64,000 bases of DNA from a virus. Position numbers and translations under genes: made by a program. The stretch lies in UHGV virus genome UHGV-0141727. The stretch is one strand, 5' to 3'. Positions 4,005 through 58,966 of this stretch are shown piece by piece. Within the stretch, counting starts at the first letter, position 1. Every line of letters starts with the position of its first letter. Under the pieces are notes generated by a model, which saw only the letters and a list, made by a program, of their open reading frames with translations, did not search any database and was not told where the DNA came from.

Positions 4005-4999
4005 ATCCTCTTAGACACAAAGATCAGCGGAGTCACCGTCTTGTTCTCTTTCACCGGTATTTCTTGTTGTTTATTGGCTGATATTGGCAGACCATAAGTG
4101 GCATTAGCCCCTAGGGATTCAAGCATCGCTGCGACAATGCGTGCATCATCCTCTGACTGCATACGGCAGAGCGCCCGGCGCTGTTCTGCGCTGATAAAAA
4201 CAGGCATTTCCTGGATAGCATCACGCAAAATACGGCGGCATTTCTTCGCGTTCTCCCCCTGGCTTTCCATCATCGCGGCCTGGTCGCGTAGTTTGTCGCG
4301 AAGCTGCATATTTTCCACTTCAAGATGTATCAGTTCCGATTCCAGAGCTTCACGCTGTGCTGATTCAATCATTGCTTGTTGACTTTGCATTTGTGCAAAG
4401 TGATGAACAATATCTGTAGCCTGATTGTCAGTGAAACCTTGATCCATCAGCGACGTGTGCATAACAGCTTCACGCTCTTCAACGGACTCCATCATCGGTA
4501 TCTGTTTATCGAGGCTGATATAGTTCGGCACGGTAACGTAATCAAATCCATGAAAGGAGTTTACTATTGACACGAAAGAATCAGGTCCAATAGTCGCCCA
4601 TGACCAACCGCCAGCATTTGAGTTGATCAATCCTTGAACAATATGCCCTGTATATGAATCAAGAATTTCTTGGGTGTGCGTAATGACACCATTATCGTCA
4701 ATAGAAATATCAACTGTTCTGTTAGATGGCACATTTTCCAGAAGAAGAGGCTTACCATCCATCATAACAACGCAAACCTCTGGCAAATCTAGTGATTTAG
4801 TTTTGTTGTAATACATCGAGCGGCGACCATGACCGTAATATCCAAATAGCTCACCAAGAGCCATGCGCTCTTTAACTAGCGGTGATGTTATGGTTTTTCG
4901 CACAGCCTCAATAATGTATTTTCGGTTGTTCTGCGGTGTATGTTTGCGGATTTTCTCTACCAGGGAGAAGCGATCCGTAACGGTATTCAGTGATTGCAT
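4001..4999 (-). CDS. putative prohead protease/scaffold (P1 Pro position)
   Basis: 332 aa immediately downstream of the portal gene, with a C-terminal coiled-coil-like region (ELIHLEVENMQLRDKLRDQ). Call rests on position. Confidence 0.45.
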   Translation of the reverse strand: MQSLNTVTDRFSLVEKIRKHTPQNNRKYIIEAVRKTITSPLVKERMALGELFGYYGHGRRSMYYNKTKSLDLPEVCVVMMDGKPLLLENVPSNRTVDISIDDNGVITHTQEILDSYTGHIVQGLINSNAGGWSWATIGPDSFVSIVNSFHGFDYVTVPNYISLDKQIPMMESVEEREAVMHTSLMDQGFTDNQATDIVHHFAQMQSQQAMIESAQREALESELIHLEVENMQLRDKLRDQAAMMESQGENAKKCRRILRDAIQEMPVFISAEQRRALCRMQSEDDARIVAAMLESLGANATYGLPISANKQQEIPVKENKTVTPLIFVSKRM

Positions 5000-5012
5000 T
5001 ATTTCCCTCCGG

Positions 5013-6698
5013 TTAATTATTGCTCATCACAAATTTTGCAAAGTTGATTAATTGTTCTTGCGTCCAGTTTTCCGGATCGTCACCGGACGACAACGGCGCG
5101 GATTCGTACATACCATGCTCGTTGTTTTGCTCTGATTCATTCGCCTTAAACTCTTTGATCATTACGTTGAGAGTGTCATCGTCGATACGAAGCTGTTCGG
5201 TGAACAGATAGCGCATAAACGCGTCGCTACCCGCCAGTTTCGGGTTGTTCTGGATCTGGTCCATTATTTGCGAGATGACAGCTACGAAGTTGGCGCGCGC
5301 ATCCAGCTCTCGGTTTTCCTCTTCCTGGATAGCTGTGTTCATTGAGTTGAATTGCACGTCATAAGGACGGTTTTTTTCGGTGTAAACCTTCCCGTATTTA
5401 TAAGCGAGGTGAATGTCATGAAGCCGATAAATAGTCCGCTGGGCGGCCTGTCTGATCCAGTTCGCGCGTAATGCGGCCTGGATAGCTGTTTGCTGCCAAC
5501 CGCCTTCTCCAAGCCCCCCACTCATCTGATCAGCCCAGCCAAGCATTGTTGCGTCAATGCCGAGGCTTGCCGCGAGCTGTCGGAGATGAAACATAACGTC
5601 TTCGATACCACTGATATCTGCGGGTATAGATTGCGTATCAATGGTGATCCCGTTCTTCCCATCCCCCATGACAGGTATCAGATGGTTAAGTACAGATGGG
5701 AGAGCATTAGAATTAATTGACCGTTGCGCTACGAGGTCGCTATGGCGCTTCAGTGCCTGGCTGACCCCGCGCGTATAATTCGCCGCGTTTACCGGATCTA
5801 TCGTGTTCGTTGTGAGTGCAATCAGGCGATCAATTTTTGCAGCGTTGTTTCGCGTTGCTTTCAGCGCAGCAAGCGCGGCACATAAATTCAGGTAGGGTTC
5901 ATAACTGTATTCAAGAAACGACGTACCGTAGTTCTGTGTCTCCATTAACGGCTTGTCCTGCTGTTCACTAAGCAAGGAATAGCCTGTAGTGCCGTAAGTT
6001 ACTGGCATTACTTTATGCTGAGGCGTCCAGTACGGGTTTTTCATGGAAACCAGATTCCACGGCTCGGTTATAACTCTGCGCAAAGTATGCGTGTCCAGAA
6101 TGTAATCACCGCTGAATCCGACAAGTTGGCTACCGCGATAAAACTCCTGAACGAAATGAGGGAGCGTGTAATAGCTCGACTCAATTCCAGTTATCCCCTT
6201 CCCTTGCTCTGCATATGGACGGATATACGACACACCGAAAATAGCCATGATCATGGCCCACGATGGAAGGCCATCATTAATCATTGAGCTTAAATCAGCG
6301 GTCAATTCCTCACATCGACTTACAGCCTCCTTATCCGCCCCATTTTTCGGAGCGAGAATAAATGCGAGGCCTGTTTTTTTTGATGGAGCCAGAGAATGCG
6401 CAATGTGAATGTTTAATGCTGTGGAGATAGTCGGACTTTTCGCCATCGTCTCCAGTATGTTGTATTTTTGCAGGCGGTCACTCGGTAATTCTGCCGATAT
6501 AGATACTGTATCCGCCGCGCTTGTCATTCCATCGCTATTGCTCCCCAGGATGCCTGGACGCAAGGCGGACAGGCCAGAACGAGCAACGACGCTATGCCCG
6601 CTCGCAAATACGACCGGATCGGCAGGCGTAACATCACCACCGCTGAAGGCTTTCTTCAATGCCGACAGAAAGCCCTTGTTTTTGTCTTTCGTTGCCAT
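5013..6698 (-). CDS. portal protein (P1 Prt position)
   Basis: 561 aa. Size and position upstream of the protease-like gene, with an acidic C-terminus. Call by synteny only. Confidence 0.55.
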   Translation of the reverse strand: MATKDKNKGFLSALKKAFSGGDVTPADPVVFASGHSVVARSGLSALRPGILGSNSDGMTSAADTVSISAELPSDRLQKYNILETMAKSPTISTALNIHIAHSLAPSKKTGLAFILAPKNGADKEAVSRCEELTADLSSMINDGLPSWAMIMAIFGVSYIRPYAEQGKGITGIESSYYTLPHFVQEFYRGSQLVGFSGDYILDTHTLRRVITEPWNLVSMKNPYWTPQHKVMPVTYGTTGYSLLSEQQDKPLMETQNYGTSFLEYSYEPYLNLCAALAALKATRNNAAKIDRLIALTTNTIDPVNAANYTRGVSQALKRHSDLVAQRSINSNALPSVLNHLIPVMGDGKNGITIDTQSIPADISGIEDVMFHLRQLAASLGIDATMLGWADQMSGGLGEGGWQQTAIQAALRANWIRQAAQRTIYRLHDIHLAYKYGKVYTEKNRPYDVQFNSMNTAIQEEENRELDARANFVAVISQIMDQIQNNPKLAGSDAFMRYLFTEQLRIDDDTLNVMIKEFKANESEQNNEHGMYESAPLSSGDDPENWTQEQLINFAKFVMSNN

Positions 6699-25010: not shown

Positions 25011-25081
25011 GGATTCCTCCAGAAAAGTCGGTACTCGTTTGGCTGGAGGATAGGGAGTGTGTGATTTTGACTTTAACCTAT

Positions 25082-25330
25082 TTATCCACAGGGTAGATCC
25101 AATAAATAGATCCCAAAGAGAACCAGTAAGATCCAAAGAAGATCCCGGATCGCTGCGAGCCGCGCCATCACTGGCCTAAATGGAGATCAACATTGACTAT
25201 GTGCGATTTAATGTTGACTATGTGCGATTTTATGTTGACTGTACGCGATTTAATGTTGACTATATGCGATATAAACATTGACTGTATGCGATAATTCTCT
25301 CAGCCCTCAGACGGCTGTGGATAAGTATCT
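25082..25330. other. plasmid replication origin, P1 oriR-like
   Basis: Perfect DnaA boxes TTATCCACA at 25082-25090 and (complement) 25316-25324. Five GATC sites at 25097-25151 inside (A/T)AGATCC heptamers. Five iterons at 25190-25292. Confidence 0.75.
25190..25292 (+). repeat. five direct RepA iterons (incC-like), 21-22 bp phasing
   Basis: A(C/T)(A/G)TTGACT(A/G)T(G/A)(T/C)GCGAT at 25190, 25211, 25232, 25253 and 25275. Confidence 0.9.
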
Positions 25331-25372
25331 TTCATTTGGCTATAAAGCCCCGTCAATCAAGGAAATAACAGG

Positions 25373-26257
25373 ATGGTAGATGACAAAAAAGGCTTTCTGA
25401 ACGTTGAGGAAATATCAGGGAATACCGGAGAAATCCACAGCTTAAAGCCTAACAATAATAGCACTATTCAGCCGATAGCTTTGTTGCGGCTTGGGGTGTT
25501 TGTTCCCACATTGAAATCTACCAGTGTTGCTTTACGTCGCAAGAACGCCGGTTTAACTAACTCCACTGATGCGACAGAAGAACTGTCCAGCCTGAAGATT
25601 GTAGAGCAGGAAGGGTATCAGGGTATTGAGATTCATGGGCCACGTCTGGATATGGATACTGATTTTAAGGTGTGGATAGGCATTACATCTGCATTGTTTG
25701 ACTATAAACCAGATAATGATGGTGTGATCACCCTGACATTCTCTGAATTTGTGGATCGTTGCGGTTATCCAAGGAAGCGGCTGTCCAAGGCTTTTCGCAA
25801 GAGCATTGGCGACTCTCTAACGCGTATTCAGCAGACGTTGCTGAAGTTCAACTTGCCCACCAGCAAAGAACATGTTCGTTATATCCAGATGAATTTATTG
25901 GCATTTAGTGAACTTGATACTGAAAATGACATTATAAGAATCCAACCGCAGAAGCAGTTGTCTGAGTTGTATTACGTTGACTATAAGCGAATATTGAAGC
26001 TCAAAATGCTCGATAAACTTGGCAGGAAAGAGACAGCCAAGGTGCTTTATACGTTTTTCGAAGCGTTACCTTCAAACCCTGCGCCAGTGAGTATTGAGCG
26101 CCTTCGCGCCAGATTGAACCTCAAATCATCGGTTAGCGTTCAGAACAGTGTGATTCGTAAAGCCATGAAAGACTTGGAAGCTGTTGAATATCTTAAATTT
26201 TCAGAGATAAAGAATGGTCGGAAAATAGGTTTCCAGATCCATAAACGAAATCCATAA
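25373..26257 (+). CDS. repA: plasmid replication initiator RepA (P1 RepA family)
   Basis: 294 aa. TIQPIALLRLGVFVP and GPRLDMDTDFKVWIGI match recalled P1 RepA motifs. Flanked by iterons; AAGGAA SD. Confidence 0.9.
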   Translation: MVDDKKGFLNVEEISGNTGEIHSLKPNNNSTIQPIALLRLGVFVPTLKSTSVALRRKNAGLTNSTDATEELSSLKIVEQEGYQGIEIHGPRLDMDTDFKVWIGITSALFDYKPDNDGVITLTFSEFVDRCGYPRKRLSKAFRKSIGDSLTRIQQTLLKFNLPTSKEHVRYIQMNLLAFSELDTENDIIRIQPQKQLSELYYVDYKRILKLKMLDKLGRKETAKVLYTFFEALPSNPAPVSIERLRARLNLKSSVSVQNSVIRKAMKDLEAVEYLKFSEIKNGRKIGFQIHKRNP

Positions 26258-26486
26258 CATTGACTGTGTGCGATTCCAAGCGTTGACTATACGCGACAAA
26301 CATTGACGCTGGCGGATTTAGTTATTAACTTTTTCACATGATCAATGGATAAACCAGCTATTTCATTGAGTATTTGTCGCTTATAGTCAATCTTTCCTCA
26401 TTTCTTGTCGTGTGTAGTCAATGTTTTGTGATCGGGATCGAGTACAGTCAACATTAGTTGTAAGCCATTTCGCCTATAGTCAACAT
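26257..26486. repeat. incA-like iteron array downstream of repA (3 direct + 4 inverted)
   Basis: Direct copies at 26257, 26280 and 26300. Inverted copies (..GTCAATGT/GTCAACAT) at 26376-26393, 26407-26424, 26437-26454 and 26469-26486. Confidence 0.8.
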
Positions 26487-30087: not shown

Positions 30088-31743
30088 TCAACGCATCAGG
30101 ATTGGTTTGCCGAGGATTCGACGAGCAGTGCCTGTTGGACACACGGACCATTCCACTTCCCACAAGTCGATGTCTTTTTGAGTTACCTTGACCACATAAG
30201 GGTCAGAACCTTGAGATTCATCGCGTGGTGTAACCAGCGCACCAGCCGCATAAAAACGGTCCAGAAGATCTGTCAGTGCGTTAGTCAGACTTTCCTGCGT
30301 TACGCCATCAGGTTCATGCTTGATTGCCTGAGCAACTTCATAGAAATTGCGGGCAATTGCATTCATCAGTGATGAAACGTGCTGGAATCGCAGATAGTTA
30401 TTTTTGCTGTATGTCGTCAGGGAGTCGTCGATGTAGACAGAACCATCCGCTGCAACGCTTACTGGGTTAATACGAGCGGTCACATACGCTTCACGATCGA
30501 TTGTGCCAATCCCGGAGAGTCTGGTGATGTTCTGGCGATCAATGATTGCGCGAGACAGACCAGCCGGGGCGTAATGCCAGCCGCCTACATCAGACACAAG
30601 CGCAACGCCTTTAGCTTTTGCCACAAATGCGTCGCAACTGATTCCGTAAACCACATTCATACCGCTGAAAGTGTCACGGCATGAGTACGGGAAGTGATAA
30701 CGTGCAGCCTGGTGGGATTTGCCGAAACCATGTGATTTAGCTTCCGCGATAGCGTTATCACCAGTCTGAGCACATTTCAGGTCGTAGAACATATCCACGC
30801 GAACGTCTTCTGCCAGCGAATTAATTTTTGCCAGCACGGATGCGTCGTAGCAGCCCATAGAAAGCAGCGCGGTATAATTAACTTCTGACGCTTCGAGAAC
30901 CTCTAACGCTTTCAGATAATCATCAGTGTCAATTGAGGACAGATCGCCATCTGTACCGCCTTCAAACGCTACATCTTCGAAAGTCAGCAAGTGAGCGGAG
31001 TCTTCGGCACCATCAGCCAGTACAGCTCCAAGCCTGGTGGACTGACTTTCTAACAACGCAGGAATCCATGCTGGCTGGCCCATATCGTTCGTTGCATCCG
31101 GATCGAAAGAAACCTGGTAGCTTTCCAGCGTTTCTACAGAACCATCGGTCTGTGTCTCTTTCAGTTCCAGAGTGAACAGGTCATTTTCTTCGTCCTCACG
31201 GGTCAGTGATAACGTGCGGTTTGTCGAAGCATCACCGTCCTTTATGTAGAAAATAGCCAGTTCACTGCCGGAAATTTCAGGTGTTTCGCTTGCAGCGAAA
31301 GTTACCGGAGAAGTGGCTCCAGAAACGGCACGAACGGTCAGTGTATCGCCGATATTTACCGTTGCTTCGGTCGGAGCAATTTGCAGAGTTTTTGCTGACT
31401 TGGTGCTTTTCGACCTGGCCTGAACAGAAACGGCAATGCCCGGTACTTTCATGTCTTTTGCGCATACGCGAACCACATAACCGGTGCCGCCTTTTACTGC
31501 GCGTTCAACGTGGCGATATGGTTCAAATGCGGCCCCGGTGCGCGGGTGAAGAGGTGAACCTAACACGCTCTGATAGTTGGCTGCTGTAACCTGCAAAACC
31601 TTGCCTGGTGCCCCTCTGCGGGAAATAACCAACCCGGCAAAGACGGAAGCACCGCCAGATGTGTTGGACAGGGTAGCATCGGCATTTACGTCCGCTACCG
31701 CAACGCCCGCCGCCTGACCAACAGAAAAACCAATTTTATTCAT
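30088..31743 (-). CDS. tail sheath protein (P1 gp22 position)
   Basis: 551 aa. Size and position between the capsid and tube-like genes. Preceded by an SD (AAAGAGGAAAAG). Confidence 0.55.
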   Translation of the reverse strand: MNKIGFSVGQAAGVAVADVNADATLSNTSGGASVFAGLVISRRGAPGKVLQVTAANYQSVLGSPLHPRTGAAFEPYRHVERAVKGGTGYVVRVCAKDMKVPGIAVSVQARSKSTKSAKTLQIAPTEATVNIGDTLTVRAVSGATSPVTFAASETPEISGSELAIFYIKDGDASTNRTLSLTREDEENDLFTLELKETQTDGSVETLESYQVSFDPDATNDMGQPAWIPALLESQSTRLGAVLADGAEDSAHLLTFEDVAFEGGTDGDLSSIDTDDYLKALEVLEASEVNYTALLSMGCYDASVLAKINSLAEDVRVDMFYDLKCAQTGDNAIAEAKSHGFGKSHQAARYHFPYSCRDTFSGMNVVYGISCDAFVAKAKGVALVSDVGGWHYAPAGLSRAIIDRQNITRLSGIGTIDREAYVTARINPVSVAADGSVYIDDSLTTYSKNNYLRFQHVSSLMNAIARNFYEVAQAIKHEPDGVTQESLTNALTDLLDRFYAAGALVTPRDESQGSDPYVVKVTQKDIDLWEVEWSVCPTGTARRILGKPILMR

Positions 31744-53873: not shown

Positions 53874-53920
53874 TGTGTTAGAAAATCAAAATTGATTTTC
53901 TAACACAAAATGAAGATACT
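53874..53920. promoter_or_regulatory. best-conserved promoter-operator (divergent: ref / plus-strand early operon)
   Basis: Perfect 15-bp arms TGTGTTAGAAAATCA-aaat-TGATTTTCTAACACA at 53874-53907. Plus-strand promoter is TTGATT (53892-97), N17, GATACT (53915-20). Confidence 0.7.
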
Positions 53921-54713: not shown

Positions 54714-55027
54714 GCTGGCGGGGATGGGGAAGGGCAGAAATCATGATACTCCGCCAGTGCGCCGGGACTATGACAGTCGAGGGTATTGGGAGACTGATCG
54801 GGCGTACCGGTGGTGCTGTCAGGACTAAAGCGCGGCAATTGCGGATCAGCATGATTCTGAAAGGTGACTTTCACCAGTCAGCCAAATACCGGCAGAGCGA
54901 TATAGAGCTGGCGCGGCAGCTTCATCAGTGTGGCGTTCCCCGCCGTGAGATCGCAGAAAAACTCGAAATGCCCTTGGGCATGATTAATCAGTACGTTTAT
55001 TTCGAAAGGAGAGTGCATGAAGTCTGA
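54710..55027 (+). CDS. small HTH-containing protein
   Basis: 105 aa, GTG start (GTGA overlap). Two HTH-like segments (MTVEGIGRLIGRTGGAVRTKARQL; PRREIAEKLEMPLGMINQYV). Confidence 0.45.
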   Translation: MSWRGWGRAEIMILRQCAGTMTVEGIGRLIGRTGGAVRTKARQLRISMILKGDFHQSAKYRQSDIELARQLHQCGVPRREIAEKLEMPLGMINQYVYFERRVHEV

Positions 55028-55520
55028 AGGTTTAACGCCCGCACAACTGGCAGAGCGTAACGCTGAGTATGTAACGGAAATTTCCCGACTTGAGAAAGAG
55101 CGCGCGGCGCTGGCGGCGGAGAATGCACTTGCTCGTAAAGCTGTTCAGGCATTCTGTGATGTTGTTGGCGACAACACTGAGATTATCTCCGAGTTGGTTG
55201 GGCGAGATGGCGTTCTGGTTATTTTGGAGGCCATGAAAGTAACAGGAAATATGCCAGCCACCGACGCTTTCCTGGCTGAAATACGTGCGGAGGCACGCAA
55301 CGAGGGGATTAACTACACCGCAAGCCGCCTTGCTGCCGCTTTCAACCACGGATTTATCAATAAGTCTTTACGTGAAGTTTTCGACGTTACACGCATGATT
55401 CTGTCAGCGAAAGAAGAGTTGGCTAATGAACCGCACCCAATTGATGGCCTGTCCGGTGAATATGCGGAGAAATCCCTTGAAGAATGGGCGGAACAGATTC
55501 GCAAAGGAGTTCAGTCATGA
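55017..55520 (+). CDS. ead/Ea22-like family protein
   Basis: 167 aa. ERAALAAENA coiled coil and the [13 protein letters not shown] motif, shared with 56701..57411. Confidence 0.55.
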   Translation: MKSEGLTPAQLAERNAEYVTEISRLEKERAALAAENALARKAVQAFCDVVGDNTEIISELVGRDGVLVILEAMKVTGNMPATDAFLAEIRAEARNEGINYTASRLAAAFNHGFINKSLREVFDVTRMILSAKEELANEPHPIDGLSGEYAEKSLEEWAEQIRKGVQS

Positions 55521-55750
55521 GCATCCGAACTGAACATGGATTTGGTCCGTCAACGGTCGAAGTCGAATGGCTTGATGATTGCCCTAAGTGCCAGCACGGC
55601 AAAGCCAAGGTAACAGGATGGTCGGTAACCAAAGATTCTTTGTGGGCGGGTGATGAGGCCGTCTGTTCCAAATGCGGTCACAAAGGCGAAATCGATGCTG
55701 ATGGAGAGAATGCCTGGGTGGAATGGGACGAAATCGAGGAGGCACAATGA
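55517..55750 (+). CDS. small zinc-ribbon protein
   Basis: ORF 55484..55750; MSIRTEHG start after GGAG. CPKC...CSKC. Confidence 0.45.
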   Translation: MSIRTEHGFGPSTVEVEWLDDCPKCQHGKAKVTGWSVTKDSLWAGDEAVCSKCGHKGEIDADGENAWVEWDEIEEAQ

Positions 55751-56379
55751 GCAATATCGACACACTGGCGCTGCGTGAGGCGGCAGAACGTGCAATTCCG
55801 GCAATGGAACGCCTGTTAATGTTGCCAGTTGATGATGATCTGATAAGTGAACAGGAACTTAAAGATTACGGTGTGGATATTGATGCGCTCAACGCCTTCA
55901 AATTTCTGGCCGGACCAGAAACCGTGCTGGCACTACTGGATGAACGGGAAAGAAACCAGCAATACATCAAACGCCGTGACCAGGAGAACGAGGATATTGC
56001 GCTAACGGTAGGGAAGCTGCGTGTTGAGCTTGAGGAAGCAAAATCAAAACTCAACGAGCAACGCGAGTATTACGAAGGTGTTATCTCGGATGGGAGTAAG
56101 CGTATTGCAGAACTGGAAGCACGGGAAATAAAACCAGCCAAAGGTGAAGTTCTTGTCGTTGTTTCTGGTTTTACTGGTTGCGGAAAAAGCGCCATTGCCG
56201 GGGAAATAGAAATCGCGATGAAGGCTATTGGTGTACCGGTTCAGTGGACTAATGGCGATGCGGAAAAGCGCATGACAGGAGCTGACTGGCTGACAGCAAT
56301 TGAGATGTACAAACCAACTGTGCGCATCGTGGAAGTTAATGTGCCACGCGCCCCTGGCATTCGCATCAAAGGAGAGTGA
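55747..56379 (+). CDS. Ea22-like N-terminal module fused to a short P-loop-containing C-terminus
   Basis: ORF 55723..56379; start at 55747 after GAGGAGG. The N-terminus is paralogous to 60980..61732. C-terminus has GFTGCGKS (Walker A-like). Confidence 0.5.
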
Positions 56380-56380
56380 G

Positions 56381-56704
56381 ATGACCACATCGCATTCTGC
56401 AATCACCCAGGAAAAAGTATTTCGCTTGCTCGAACGTCTGGAGGCGCTCGCCACGGAGGAGGATATATCCCCGGAGATGCTGGTCGAGTGCAGCCGTGTG
56501 ATATTGCGTCGCAAGAACGACATCGCGCGGCTGACATCCGGCGCACCATCCGTATCAGCCAGTCCAACGCTTTATTGCAGCTTCTGCAACAAATCCCAGC
56601 ACACCGTTAAAAAGTTAATTGCCGGTGACAACGTTTTCATCTGCAACGAGTGCGTGAAAGATTGCAACAACATTATCCAGGAAGAGCAAAGGGAATCAGC
56701 ATGA
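56381..56704 (+). CDS. stand-alone ClpX-type C4 zinc-finger (ZBD) protein
   Basis: 107 aa. C-terminal [39 protein letters not shown] is near-identical in pattern to the ClpX N-terminal [29 protein letters not shown]. Confidence 0.8.
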
Positions 56705-57411
56705 AATTTTCCAAATTTTCTGAGTTGGTGAATCGTATTTTGTCCAACAACCACAGCCATCGTCGCGATATGGATGTAACAATCGTTATTCATTCGCCTG
56801 GCAGCATTGGTTCAACACCTTCAGTTGAGGTTCAGTCAATTCACGCTGGTTTTGATTGGGATTCCGGGAAAGTGCTGATTTTCCCAGCACAGCCACTGAC
56901 CGCGCTAACACCAGAACAGATTACTGATATCACGGATAGTGTGCGCAAAGGTCAGTCTTGGCACGCATATCAGGAATACAAGAAGCATAAAGAGCAGTTG
57001 GAAAAATTGTCGATTGAACTTGATGCTGCAAGACGGCGCATTACAGAACTGGAGAGCGAACGCGCGGTGCTGGCGGCGGAGAATGCGGATCTGAAGTCTG
57101 TGCACCCTCAACCATTCGGAGCTGAGATGATGAAGGCTCTTGATGCGTATGAGAAGCATCAGGATGAAGTGCCAGAGACTGGAATGCTCAATGCATTTTT
57201 CATCTTGCGCGACAGTATCCGTGTTGACACCCCAGCCACCGATGCTTTCCTGGCTGAAGTACGTGCGCAGGGCGTGGATATGGCTCGTAACGCGATGATT
57301 GATTTTGTCGATGGTGAAGTTGGTCCAAACAAGAATGTTCCGGGGCTGATTAGAGGCGCAGAGATATGCGTAAGTATTGCTGAACAGCTTCGCAAAGGAG
57401 GCAGCCAGTGA
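56701..57411 (+). CDS. ead/Ea22-like family protein
   Basis: ORF 56650..57411; ATGA-overlap start at 56701. [13 protein letters not shown] and [17 protein letters not shown]. Confidence 0.55.
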
Positions 57412-58926: not shown

Positions 58927-58966
58927 ATGTTAGAATATTGATTTTAATTTTCTAACAGATTATTTT
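58927..58966 (+). promoter_or_regulatory. promoter-operator of the 59000+ operon
   Basis: ATGTTAGAATAT-N8-ATTTTCTAACAG. The -35 is TTGATT (58938-43), N17, TATTTT (58961-66). Confidence 0.6.

Follow-up and report, generated by a model that had tools for sequence, protein, structure and literature searches.

The 64,000 nucleotides of UHGV virus genome UHGV-0141727 analysed here (hereafter the window) represent an E. coli phage-plasmid that is D6-like and belongs to the P1 family, and a gene at 56381-56704 encodes a 107-residue protein of two modules. The C-terminal one is, by profile, structure and alignment searches, a true ClpX zinc-binding domain (ZBD) without the AAA+ motor, and the N-terminal one found relatives only within the protein's own family. 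The assignment of the zinc finger is already present in RefSeq and Pfam, and it is the two-module architecture that is distinctive. A reading that we tentatively favour is that the protein could be a decoy, or anti-adaptor, for the ligands that dock on the ZBD of ClpX.

The C-terminal ClpX-type zinc-binding domain

The gene is an intact open reading frame (ORF) of 107 codons on the + strand, from an ATG at 56381 to a TGA at 56702-56704. Its product is 100% identical to RefSeq WP_021551796.1, which RefSeq/PGAP names "ClpX C4-type zinc finger protein", and at full length it matches PHROG 6797 (phrog_6797; E=1e-56), the family to which it belongs and which PHROGs labels as function unknown. An earlier reading of the window from its letters (the sequence-only reading) had described it as a stand-alone ClpX ZBD, quoting a C-terminal sequence and coordinates that are correct to the letter, and the searches bear out the description. 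Residues 65-101 match Pfam PF06689 (zf-C4_ClpX) over positions 2-39 of the 39 in the profile, at 64.2 bits (E=9.8e-18), where the gathering cut-off is 27; residues 1-65 of E. coli ClpX, scored likewise, reach 77.4 bits. Nothing other than PF06689 was matched in the 107-residue protein by Pfam at E<=1, and no helix-turn-helix (HTH) or other nucleic-acid-binding signature was found. Among solved structures, the ZBD of E. coli ClpX gives the top matches (1OVX and 2DS5; E about 1e-15), and a Foldseek search with the AlphaFold model places its ZBD part closest to 2DS6, 2DS5 and 2DS8 (probability 1.00, template-modelling score 0.56-0.59 on the target).

When aligned with residues 12-51 of the ClpX of strain MG1655, the domain is identical at 28 of 40 positions (70%), with the four Cys in register. 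The predicted zinc ligands C66, C69, C88 and C91 (codons at 56576, 56585, 56642 and 56651; pattern CxxC-(18)-CxxC) correspond to C15, C18, C37 and C40 of ClpX and are invariant throughout the family. As in the ZBD of E. coli ClpX, a C4 treble-clef finger with this Cys spacing is followed by a helix; unlike ClpX, where the ZBD is N-terminal and precedes an AAA+ motor, the window protein has it at the C-terminus of a small protein. We found no AAA+ module: the ClpX models TIGR00382 and NF003745 score 43.6 and 47.5 bits, far under their cut-offs of 370.75 and 359, their alignment is confined to profile positions 5-50, and the protein stops at residue 107.

Homologues of this protein, among them orf93 of phage D6 (NC_050154), one in phage P88 and many GenBank proteins, are often labelled 'carboxylate--amine ligase'. 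This looks like an error propagated from phage P88, and the name is unsupported, since PF06689 is the sole Pfam match of the protein.

The N-terminal domain and the linker

An AlphaFold2 model, a monomer prediction built from an alignment of 23 sequences (mean predicted local distance difference test score (pLDDT) 73, predicted template-modelling score (pTM) 0.35), has helices at residues 10-26 and 31-52 with block-mean pLDDT of 75-90. A flexible linker joins this predicted hairpin to the ZBD, in which residues 64-65 and 72-73 form short strands and 89-106 a helix, its own hairpin being only partly modelled (block-mean pLDDT 63-79). The sequence-only reading had also described the N-terminus as unrelated to ClpX, and indeed the N-terminal ~60 residues have no relatives outside the family: when 1.84 billion representatives were searched exhaustively with HMMER, nine matches came back, all of the same two-domain family or of low complexity. 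No significant match to the domain was obtained in Pfam and PDB profile searches, Foldseek with the whole model matched the ZBD part only, and a scan of GTDB genomes with an N-domain pattern found nothing. Copies of the N-domain without the ZBD were seen solely as truncated fragments, and from all these searches the domain appears private to the ZBD-protein family. Inspection of the alignment revealed no XB-like (LRVVK or LKxh), IGF-like or ssrA-like motif conserved across clades.

In two rare chimeras (P0022 and P0024) the linker of residues 53-62 is the exact junction at which the same ZBD is preceded by a different N-terminus, Ea22-like or other. They are probably recombinants with Ea22-like genes and, being single rare contigs, lend little weight to an argument for modularity. 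Two other viral contigs (L038 and L040) are frameshifted within the ZBD helix, so that the gene reads on into its downstream neighbour as a fusion. Chimeras and fusions alike may be products of recombination or decay, or sequencing errors.

Departures from ClpX

For comparison we used 75 ClpX ZBDs from proteobacterial genomes, taken from among the matches listed in a GTDB scan with a full-length pattern, in which clpX genes predominated. The set is biased towards the search patterns, only the columns outside those patterns being informative. Conserved in the window protein are the zinc-knuckle motif CSFCxKSQH, both strands of the hairpin (V(K/R)KLIAG and V(F/Y)IC) and, in ClpX numbering, the helix residues V41, C44, N45, I47, I48, E50 and E51. 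The polar residues conserved in ClpX that it retains, counting zinc knuckle and hairpin, are S16, K20, S21, Q22, H23, K27, E39, N45, E50 and E51, and these are presumably exposed at the surface. On the other hand, seven sites that are 97-100% conserved in the 75 ClpX ZBDs have changed: G19N, E24T, P32D, D42K, L43D, D46N and R49Q.

D42K and L43D are adjacent on the C-terminal helix, and P32D, like the variable residue 33, falls in the turn of the hairpin. The SSTR 'adaptor-docking loop' of human CLPX has been described as functionally conserved with the SspB-docking loop of bacteria (PMC7647994), and from that definition we mapped the E. coli loop, by Cys register, to A30-G31-P32-S33. The expected A-G-P-(S/T) is replaced by A-G-D-N in the window protein, P32 being invariant in the 75 ClpX ZBDs and S33 variable. 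On the helix, where the D-L of E. coli ClpX has become K-D, it is L43, also invariant in the reference set, that is Asp in the window protein. The ClpX ZBD dimer has a hydrophobic interface built from the C-terminal helix and the hairpins (PMC5890618), and the dimer interface of the window ZBD may therefore differ from that of ClpX. The arguments concerning XB contacts and the dimer interface draw on secondary sources and inference. As aligned, the docking loop and part of the probable dimer surface are remodelled relative to ClpX; P32D in the mapped loop, together with D42K and L43D on the dimer helix, makes binding of SspB and heterodimerisation with ClpX less certain for the clade of the window. 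Other clades differ in this respect: the P2-like and distant members have AGPS and D-L, the other plasmid clades AG(D/E)x and (D/E)(V/A/L), and the K-D pair occurs in the window's clade only. The description of the finger as 'almost a copy' of that of ClpX, made in the sequence-only reading, is thus fair for the family overall and overstated for this member, with its 28 of 40 identities and its remodelled loop and helix.

Family, distribution and selection

A word-index protein search yielded about 25 clusters, all from Escherichia or Salmonella, and two candidates when the ZBD alone was used. Scanning IMG/VR gave 204 relatives, the best 80 of which were kept and reduced to 48 distinct ORF products, including two frameshift fusions and one full-length ClpX. 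Proteins with both domains form several groups, found in D6-like phage-plasmids, in phage-plasmids of ~108 kb, in a clade with the linker YTSSVS, in P2-like prophages and in two more distant IMG/VR viral contigs (L085 and L086), and the plan of helical hairpin, linker and ZBD is common to all of them. Among complete E. coli genomes, 195 of 5,426 (~3.6%) have a blastn match at E<=1e-5, full-length in 110; about half of the matches are on plasmids and half on chromosomes. No neighbouring gene is conserved across all phage types, and no family in the PADLOC-DB defence models was matched at E<=1.

On the E. coli UTI89 chromosome, in a P2-like prophage (4480-6151 of locus L003), the ZBD-family gene follows gpA and a ParM/ParR-like pair. 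Such a partition pair is not what an integrated P2-type prophage usually carries.

Purifying selection acts on both domains. Ratios of nonsynonymous to synonymous divergence (dN/dS, method NG86) between clades are 0.13-0.31 for the N-domain and 0.04-0.6 for the ZBD; with only 40-48 codons behind them, these values are noisy. Of the two, the ZBD has changed more slowly across the deepest splits, with a proportion of nonsynonymous differences (pN) of 0.18-0.28 vs 0.47-0.55 for the N-domain. Compared with clpX of MG1655, the ZBD has a nucleotide identity of 60% and a proportion of synonymous differences (pS) of 0.76, i.e. synonymous sites are saturated, which argues against a recent capture. We could discard recent capture from the host clpX also because in none of the 195 blastn-positive genomes did the match fall at clpX. 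At the protein level the ZBDs of the family are nevertheless 70-79% identical to that of host ClpX, and judging from these figures the domain is an old acquisition that selection has held ClpX-like.

A possible decoy of the ClpX docking platform and its alternatives

Under the control of ClpXP are sigma-S, proteins of SOS mutagenesis, antitoxins (P1 Phd, for instance) and the lambda and Mu replication proteins, and only a few cases are known, RexB among them, of how mobile elements tune this protease. If, as we lean towards thinking, the 107-residue protein is a decoy for ZBD-docking ligands, it would be a small two-module modulator of host ClpXP, supplied from the presumably repressor-controlled accessory operon of a D6-like phage-plasmid. 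The N-terminal hairpin would probably self-associate and so keep two ZBDs together, and the resulting pair of free ZBDs would bind those tails or surfaces with which adaptors and ZBD-dependent substrates dock on ClpX, candidate ligands being RssB with sigma-S, XB tails of the SspB type, tethers of the UmuD type and substrates like lambda O and MuA. Degradation that depends on adaptors or on the ZBD would be slowed selectively, sparing the ClpX motor and ZBD-independent substrates, and in function the protein would be an anti-adaptor that imitates the docking domain of the protease itself. This scheme builds on the domain identity, architecture, conservation, distribution and selection that we observed, from which we infer dimerisation, ligand binding, an effect on ClpXP and the timing of expression.

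Several observations are consistent with a decoy. The retention of 28 of 40 core residues, polar ones included, despite synonymous saturation fits selection for ClpX-like surfaces, beyond the fold itself, and the P2-like and distant members keep both the AGPS loop and the D-L helix motif. Since no partner gene is conserved across phage types, the target is probably a host component. Wojtyra et al. reportedly found in 2003 that the ClpX ZBD is a primary binding site for lambda O and SspB, and Neher et al., in the same year, are said to have shown that UmuD' is delivered to ClpXP via a tether in UmuD that binds the ZBD. On its own, the ZBD of ClpX folds and dimerises, and it is the docking site of adaptors and some substrates (PMC9035409); XB-containing peptides bind the isolated ZBD with a KD of 35-82 nM (PMC12373786). 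Titration of adaptors or substrates, or heterodimerisation with ClpX, had been put forward in the sequence-only reading, and for a free ZBD there is an in vitro precedent, in that isolated ClpX ZBD added in trans inhibits the RssB-mediated breakdown of sigma-S by ClpXP (PMC7226468); the proposal has to be set against the seven changed positions, P32D, D42K and L43D among them. The same reading was right that P1 Phd is a ClpXP substrate (PMC10286901). As possible beneficiaries one may name, speculatively, a Phd-family antitoxin and an S24 (HumD/UmuD'-like) peptidase of related plasmids.

A number of points weigh against the decoy. The seven positions altered in the window's clade are 97-100% conserved in ClpX, and XB/SspB binding and ClpX-like dimerisation may, to judge from them, be altered or lost. 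Inhibition in vitro took 5-20 uM ZBD vs 0.6 uM ClpXP (PMC7226468), from which it follows that in cells the ZBD would have to be in large excess. The constant presence of a conserved, private N-domain is not explained by a decoy, among the plasmid clades the ZBD has a dN/dS of 0.4-0.6 (small n), no more than moderately low, and our literature search found no paper giving a function for stand-alone phage ZBD proteins.

The N-domain would find a role if the protein were instead a hijacking adaptor, which we consider rather unlikely. In that case the ZBD would dock on ClpX, through mixed dimers or association with the ZBD layer, and the N-terminal hairpin would recruit a specific protein of host or phage as cargo for degradation or remodelling, or gate the pore sterically. 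The layout is indeed adaptor-like, with a docking module, a flexible linker (pLDDT <50, pTM 0.35) and a separate conserved module that, save in truncated fragments, is tied to the ZBD and has dN/dS of 0.13-0.31. Moreover, ClpX ZBDs dimerise via the C-terminal helix and hairpins (PMC5890618), and most of the hydrophobic set involved (V41, C44, I47 and I48) is kept; yet the replacement of the ClpX-invariant L43 by Asp and of D42 by Lys in the window's clade looks unfavourable for a mixed dimer, and the ClpX ZBD dimer has been called constitutive (PMC7226468), so that exchange with a free monomer may be slow. Nor is there a conserved cargo candidate next to the gene, or a recognisable binding fold in the N-domain according to Pfam and PDB profile searches.

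The seven changed positions would also suit a protein that binds its target independently of ClpX, the ZBD serving as a dimeric treble-clef scaffold that binds and inhibits a target such as a sigma factor, another regulator or a nucleic acid, although we doubt this explanation as well. Its model is CsfB (Gin) of B. subtilis (PDB 5N7Y), a stand-alone ClpX-ZBD-like treble-clef dimer that acts by protein binding, as an anti-sigma factor (PMC5890618). However, CsfB is ~20% identical to the ClpX ZBD, and common ancestry is doubted by the authors (PMC5890618), whereas the window protein at ~70% is a clear homologue, and the 70-79% identity to ClpX that the family has kept, saturation at synonymous sites notwithstanding, extends to residues without an evident structural role. 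PF06689 does occur in other architectures, e.g. cyanobacterial sigma factors (PMC11119718), and the accessory genes around this one are of diverse and unknown function; against this, the searches described above gave no HTH or nucleic-acid signature, no Pfam match at E<=1 besides PF06689 and no PADLOC match. Very improbable, finally, are two further explanations: a labile antitoxin whose toxin is encoded next to it, or the 5' end of a captured clpX that has decayed and lost its function. The tight coupling to the downstream gene through an ATGA overlap would fit an antitoxin, but that gene varies between phage types, and the match to the 'antitoxin' family phrog_4681 (E=0.1) is not significant; the frameshifts into the downstream gene in L038 and L040 are a further point in favour of this pair of explanations. 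The DNA is not similar to clpX, and the gene is intact and under purifying selection in at least three phage lineages and in 110 complete E. coli genomes.

The decoy that we favour would have functional parallels among known proteins. The RssB anti-adaptors IraD, IraM, IraP and the prophage-linked IraL are small proteins that stabilise a ClpXP substrate by blocking its adaptor, as we propose here; they have no sequence kinship to the window protein, and they bind the adaptor with folds of their own rather than with what would be a copy of the docking domain. Lambda CIII is a phage inhibitor of FtsH. An overlapping site on RssB has been proposed for the ZBD and IraD (PMC7226468). Other phage inhibitors of host proteases are T7 gp4.5, T4 PinA and lambda RexB, with protection of phage proteins or antitoxins as proposed benefits (PMC10286901). 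These, RexB acting on the ClpP family and PinA and gp4.5 on Lon, are likewise small phage proteins that blunt a host protease, the likeness being one of proposed mechanism only: their sequences are unrelated, none copies a protease domain, and inhibition by the window protein is hypothetical. If the decoy reading is true, a natural free ZBD would be the first known modulator that copies the docking platform of a protease, it would offer a simple in vivo tool for separating adaptor-dependent from adaptor-independent degradation by ClpXP, and it would give a function to a gene family present, on phage-plasmids and P2-like prophages, in 195 of 5,426 complete E. coli genomes. If the protein turns out to be unrelated to ClpXP, it would just be another of the small accessory proteins of phages, with a zinc finger that was borrowed.

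Other phage proteins with ClpX-type fingers

Of 50,697 phage records, 48 match the ZBD at E<=1e-3, some of them being full-length clpX genes of jumbo phages. Short ZBD-only phage ORFs are represented by PHROGs 12435, 5259 and 20296 and by entries of 58-65 residues in a viral structure library. One such short ClpX-type finger protein is the 65-residue 'Clp protease' of Pseudomonas phage PP9W2, and another is encoded by a 79-residue ORF with a TTG start in Caulobacter phage Cr30 (NC_025422, L168; 1486-1725). No single annotated ORF spans the latter: gp170 takes in only the last 41 codons, and the start is overlapped, in a different frame, by gp169. The Cr30 finger has an altered loop (ASVN) and an L-C-M variant, with M at ClpX position 45, which occurs in 24% of the 75 ClpX ZBDs and which we take to be alphaproteobacterial. 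This variant hints that phages captured host-type ZBDs repeatedly and independently. The proteins of these three PHROGs, Cr30 and PP9W2 resemble the window protein in being short phage ClpX-type fingers; unlike PHROG 6797 they lack the N-terminal helical hairpin, and they are uncharacterised.

A metagenomic protein of 145 residues (P0025) has two tandem ClpX-type zinc fingers (122.6 bits) separated by an acidic, Ser-rich linker. The two could pair within the molecule as a ZBD 'dimer' and so provide a docking platform in a single chain.

It is possible, if doubtful, that capture of the ClpX docking domain has happened time and again in enterobacterial temperate phages and, independently, in others such as Cr30, and that the domain is used on its own as a 'platform mimic'. 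This would be a new class of protease modulator, one that reprogrammes which substrates ClpXP chooses through molecular mimicry of its adaptor-docking site. In the D6-like clade, K93-D94 and AGDN would then set the mimic apart from host ClpX as an orthogonal module that forms no mixed dimers and has an altered adaptor preference. Such a mimic would sequester only a subset of ligands, for example RssB with sigma-S or the UmuD-type tethers that would otherwise deliver HumD-like or Phd-like proteins of the phage-plasmid.

Genomic context

The identity of aligned blocks between the window and E. coli plasmid pMUB-MIN14-1 is 94-98.6%, and the ZBD gene shares 88% nucleotide identity with its counterpart in phage D6, the orf93 mentioned above. 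Small accessory genes surround it, in a row bounded by a ref-like gene and ppp-/pdcB-like genes; among these neighbours are Ea22-like, DUF4752, metallophosphoesterase and other genes, of diverse or unknown function (Table 1).

Table 1. Location of the features discussed, as positions in the 64,000-nucleotide window
Feature	Position	Strand	Basis
Gene for the stand-alone ClpX-ZBD protein, complete, stop codon included	56381..56704	+	ORF reading; identity to WP_021551796.1
Predicted helical hairpin, N-terminal domain, residues 1-53	56381..56539	+	AlphaFold2; HMMER
Flexible linker, residues 53-62	56537..56566	+	pLDDT <50 at residues 56-59
ClpX-type C4 zinc-binding domain, residues 63-102	56567..56686	+	Pfam, PDB, Foldseek, alignment
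A81-G82-D83-N84, equivalent of ClpX A30-G31-P32-S33 ('adaptor-docking loop'), Pro to Asp	56621..56632	+	Cys-register mapping
K93-D94 in the C-terminal helix, replacing ClpX D/E42-L43	56657..56662	+	alignment
Shine-Dalgarno-like AGGAG, 6 nucleotides 5' of the ATG	56370..56374	+	direct sequence reading
Upstream gene, 218 residues, coiled-coil, Ea22-like	55723..56379	+	ORF list
Downstream gene, 236 residues, ATG overlapping the stop of the ZBD gene	56701..57411	+	ORF list, sequence
Perfect 15+15 palindrome GTGTTAGAAAATCAA-aa-TTGATTTTCTAACAC, 32 bp	53875..53906	.	divergent intergenic region, head of + strand operon
Operator-like half-site, 2 mismatches, ahead of the pdcB-like gene	58944..58958	+	motif scan

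A single nucleotide separates the TGA of the upstream gene (56377-56379) from the ATG of the ZBD gene, which suggests translational coupling, and the ZBD-gene stop overlaps the next ATG as ATGA (56701-56704). Gap and overlap together mark the gene as a cistron of a tightly packed, co-directional operon. The perfect palindrome lies between the ref-like gene and this operon, where it overlaps a weak promoter (TTGATT-17-GATACT), and is likely to be a repressor operator. Its half-site TTGATTTTCTAACAC occurs 11 times in the window vs 2.46 expected, a number that none of 100 shuffles reached. Sites of the operator-like motif TT(G/A)ATTTTCTAACAC are at 53875-53906, 2772, 3973, 34056, 42129/42146, 53244 and 58944, with weaker ones at 31042 and 49841, and two of the sites are inverted pairs, the 32-bp palindrome included. 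The P1 C1 operator consensus has no match in the window, and the palindromic set probably represents operators of a D6-type immunity repressor. The half-site at 58944 is the downstream limit of an operator-free block that contains the ZBD gene. That the gene belongs to an early operon, as the sequence-only reading had it, agrees with the co-directional block of small genes, the palindrome at its head and the position of the next half-site; we regard a repressor-controlled early operon as plausible.

The window is colinear with its closest plasmid, NZ_CP069647, apart from several unaligned stretches. One of these, 25068-26486, lies opposite the RepB initiator gene of NZ_CP069647 and has no megablast match, and the RepB gene of the plasmid was not found in the window, so that the replication-initiator allele may differ between the two. 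Another, 55789-56355, makes up most of the 218-residue Ea22-like gene and is absent from NZ_CP069647. The Phd-family antitoxin gene and the S24 (HumD/UmuD'-like) peptidase of the closest plasmid fall just outside the window, and an S24 peptidase is also found near the ZBD-family gene of the ~108-kb plasmids.

The gene upstream of the ZBD gene is not constant among relatives. Downstream, the N-terminal ~110 residues of the 236-residue product are also encoded 3' of the ZBD gene in the ~108-kb phage-plasmids and not in P2-like prophages; in the former (L004, 5321-5851) the same ~110-residue module is followed by another C-terminal half. The C-terminal half of the 56701-57411 product and the product of a 167-codon ORF at 55017-55520 both contain AAENAxL and PATDAFLAE(I/V)RA, a sharing of motifs that points to mosaic, Ea22-like module shuffling.

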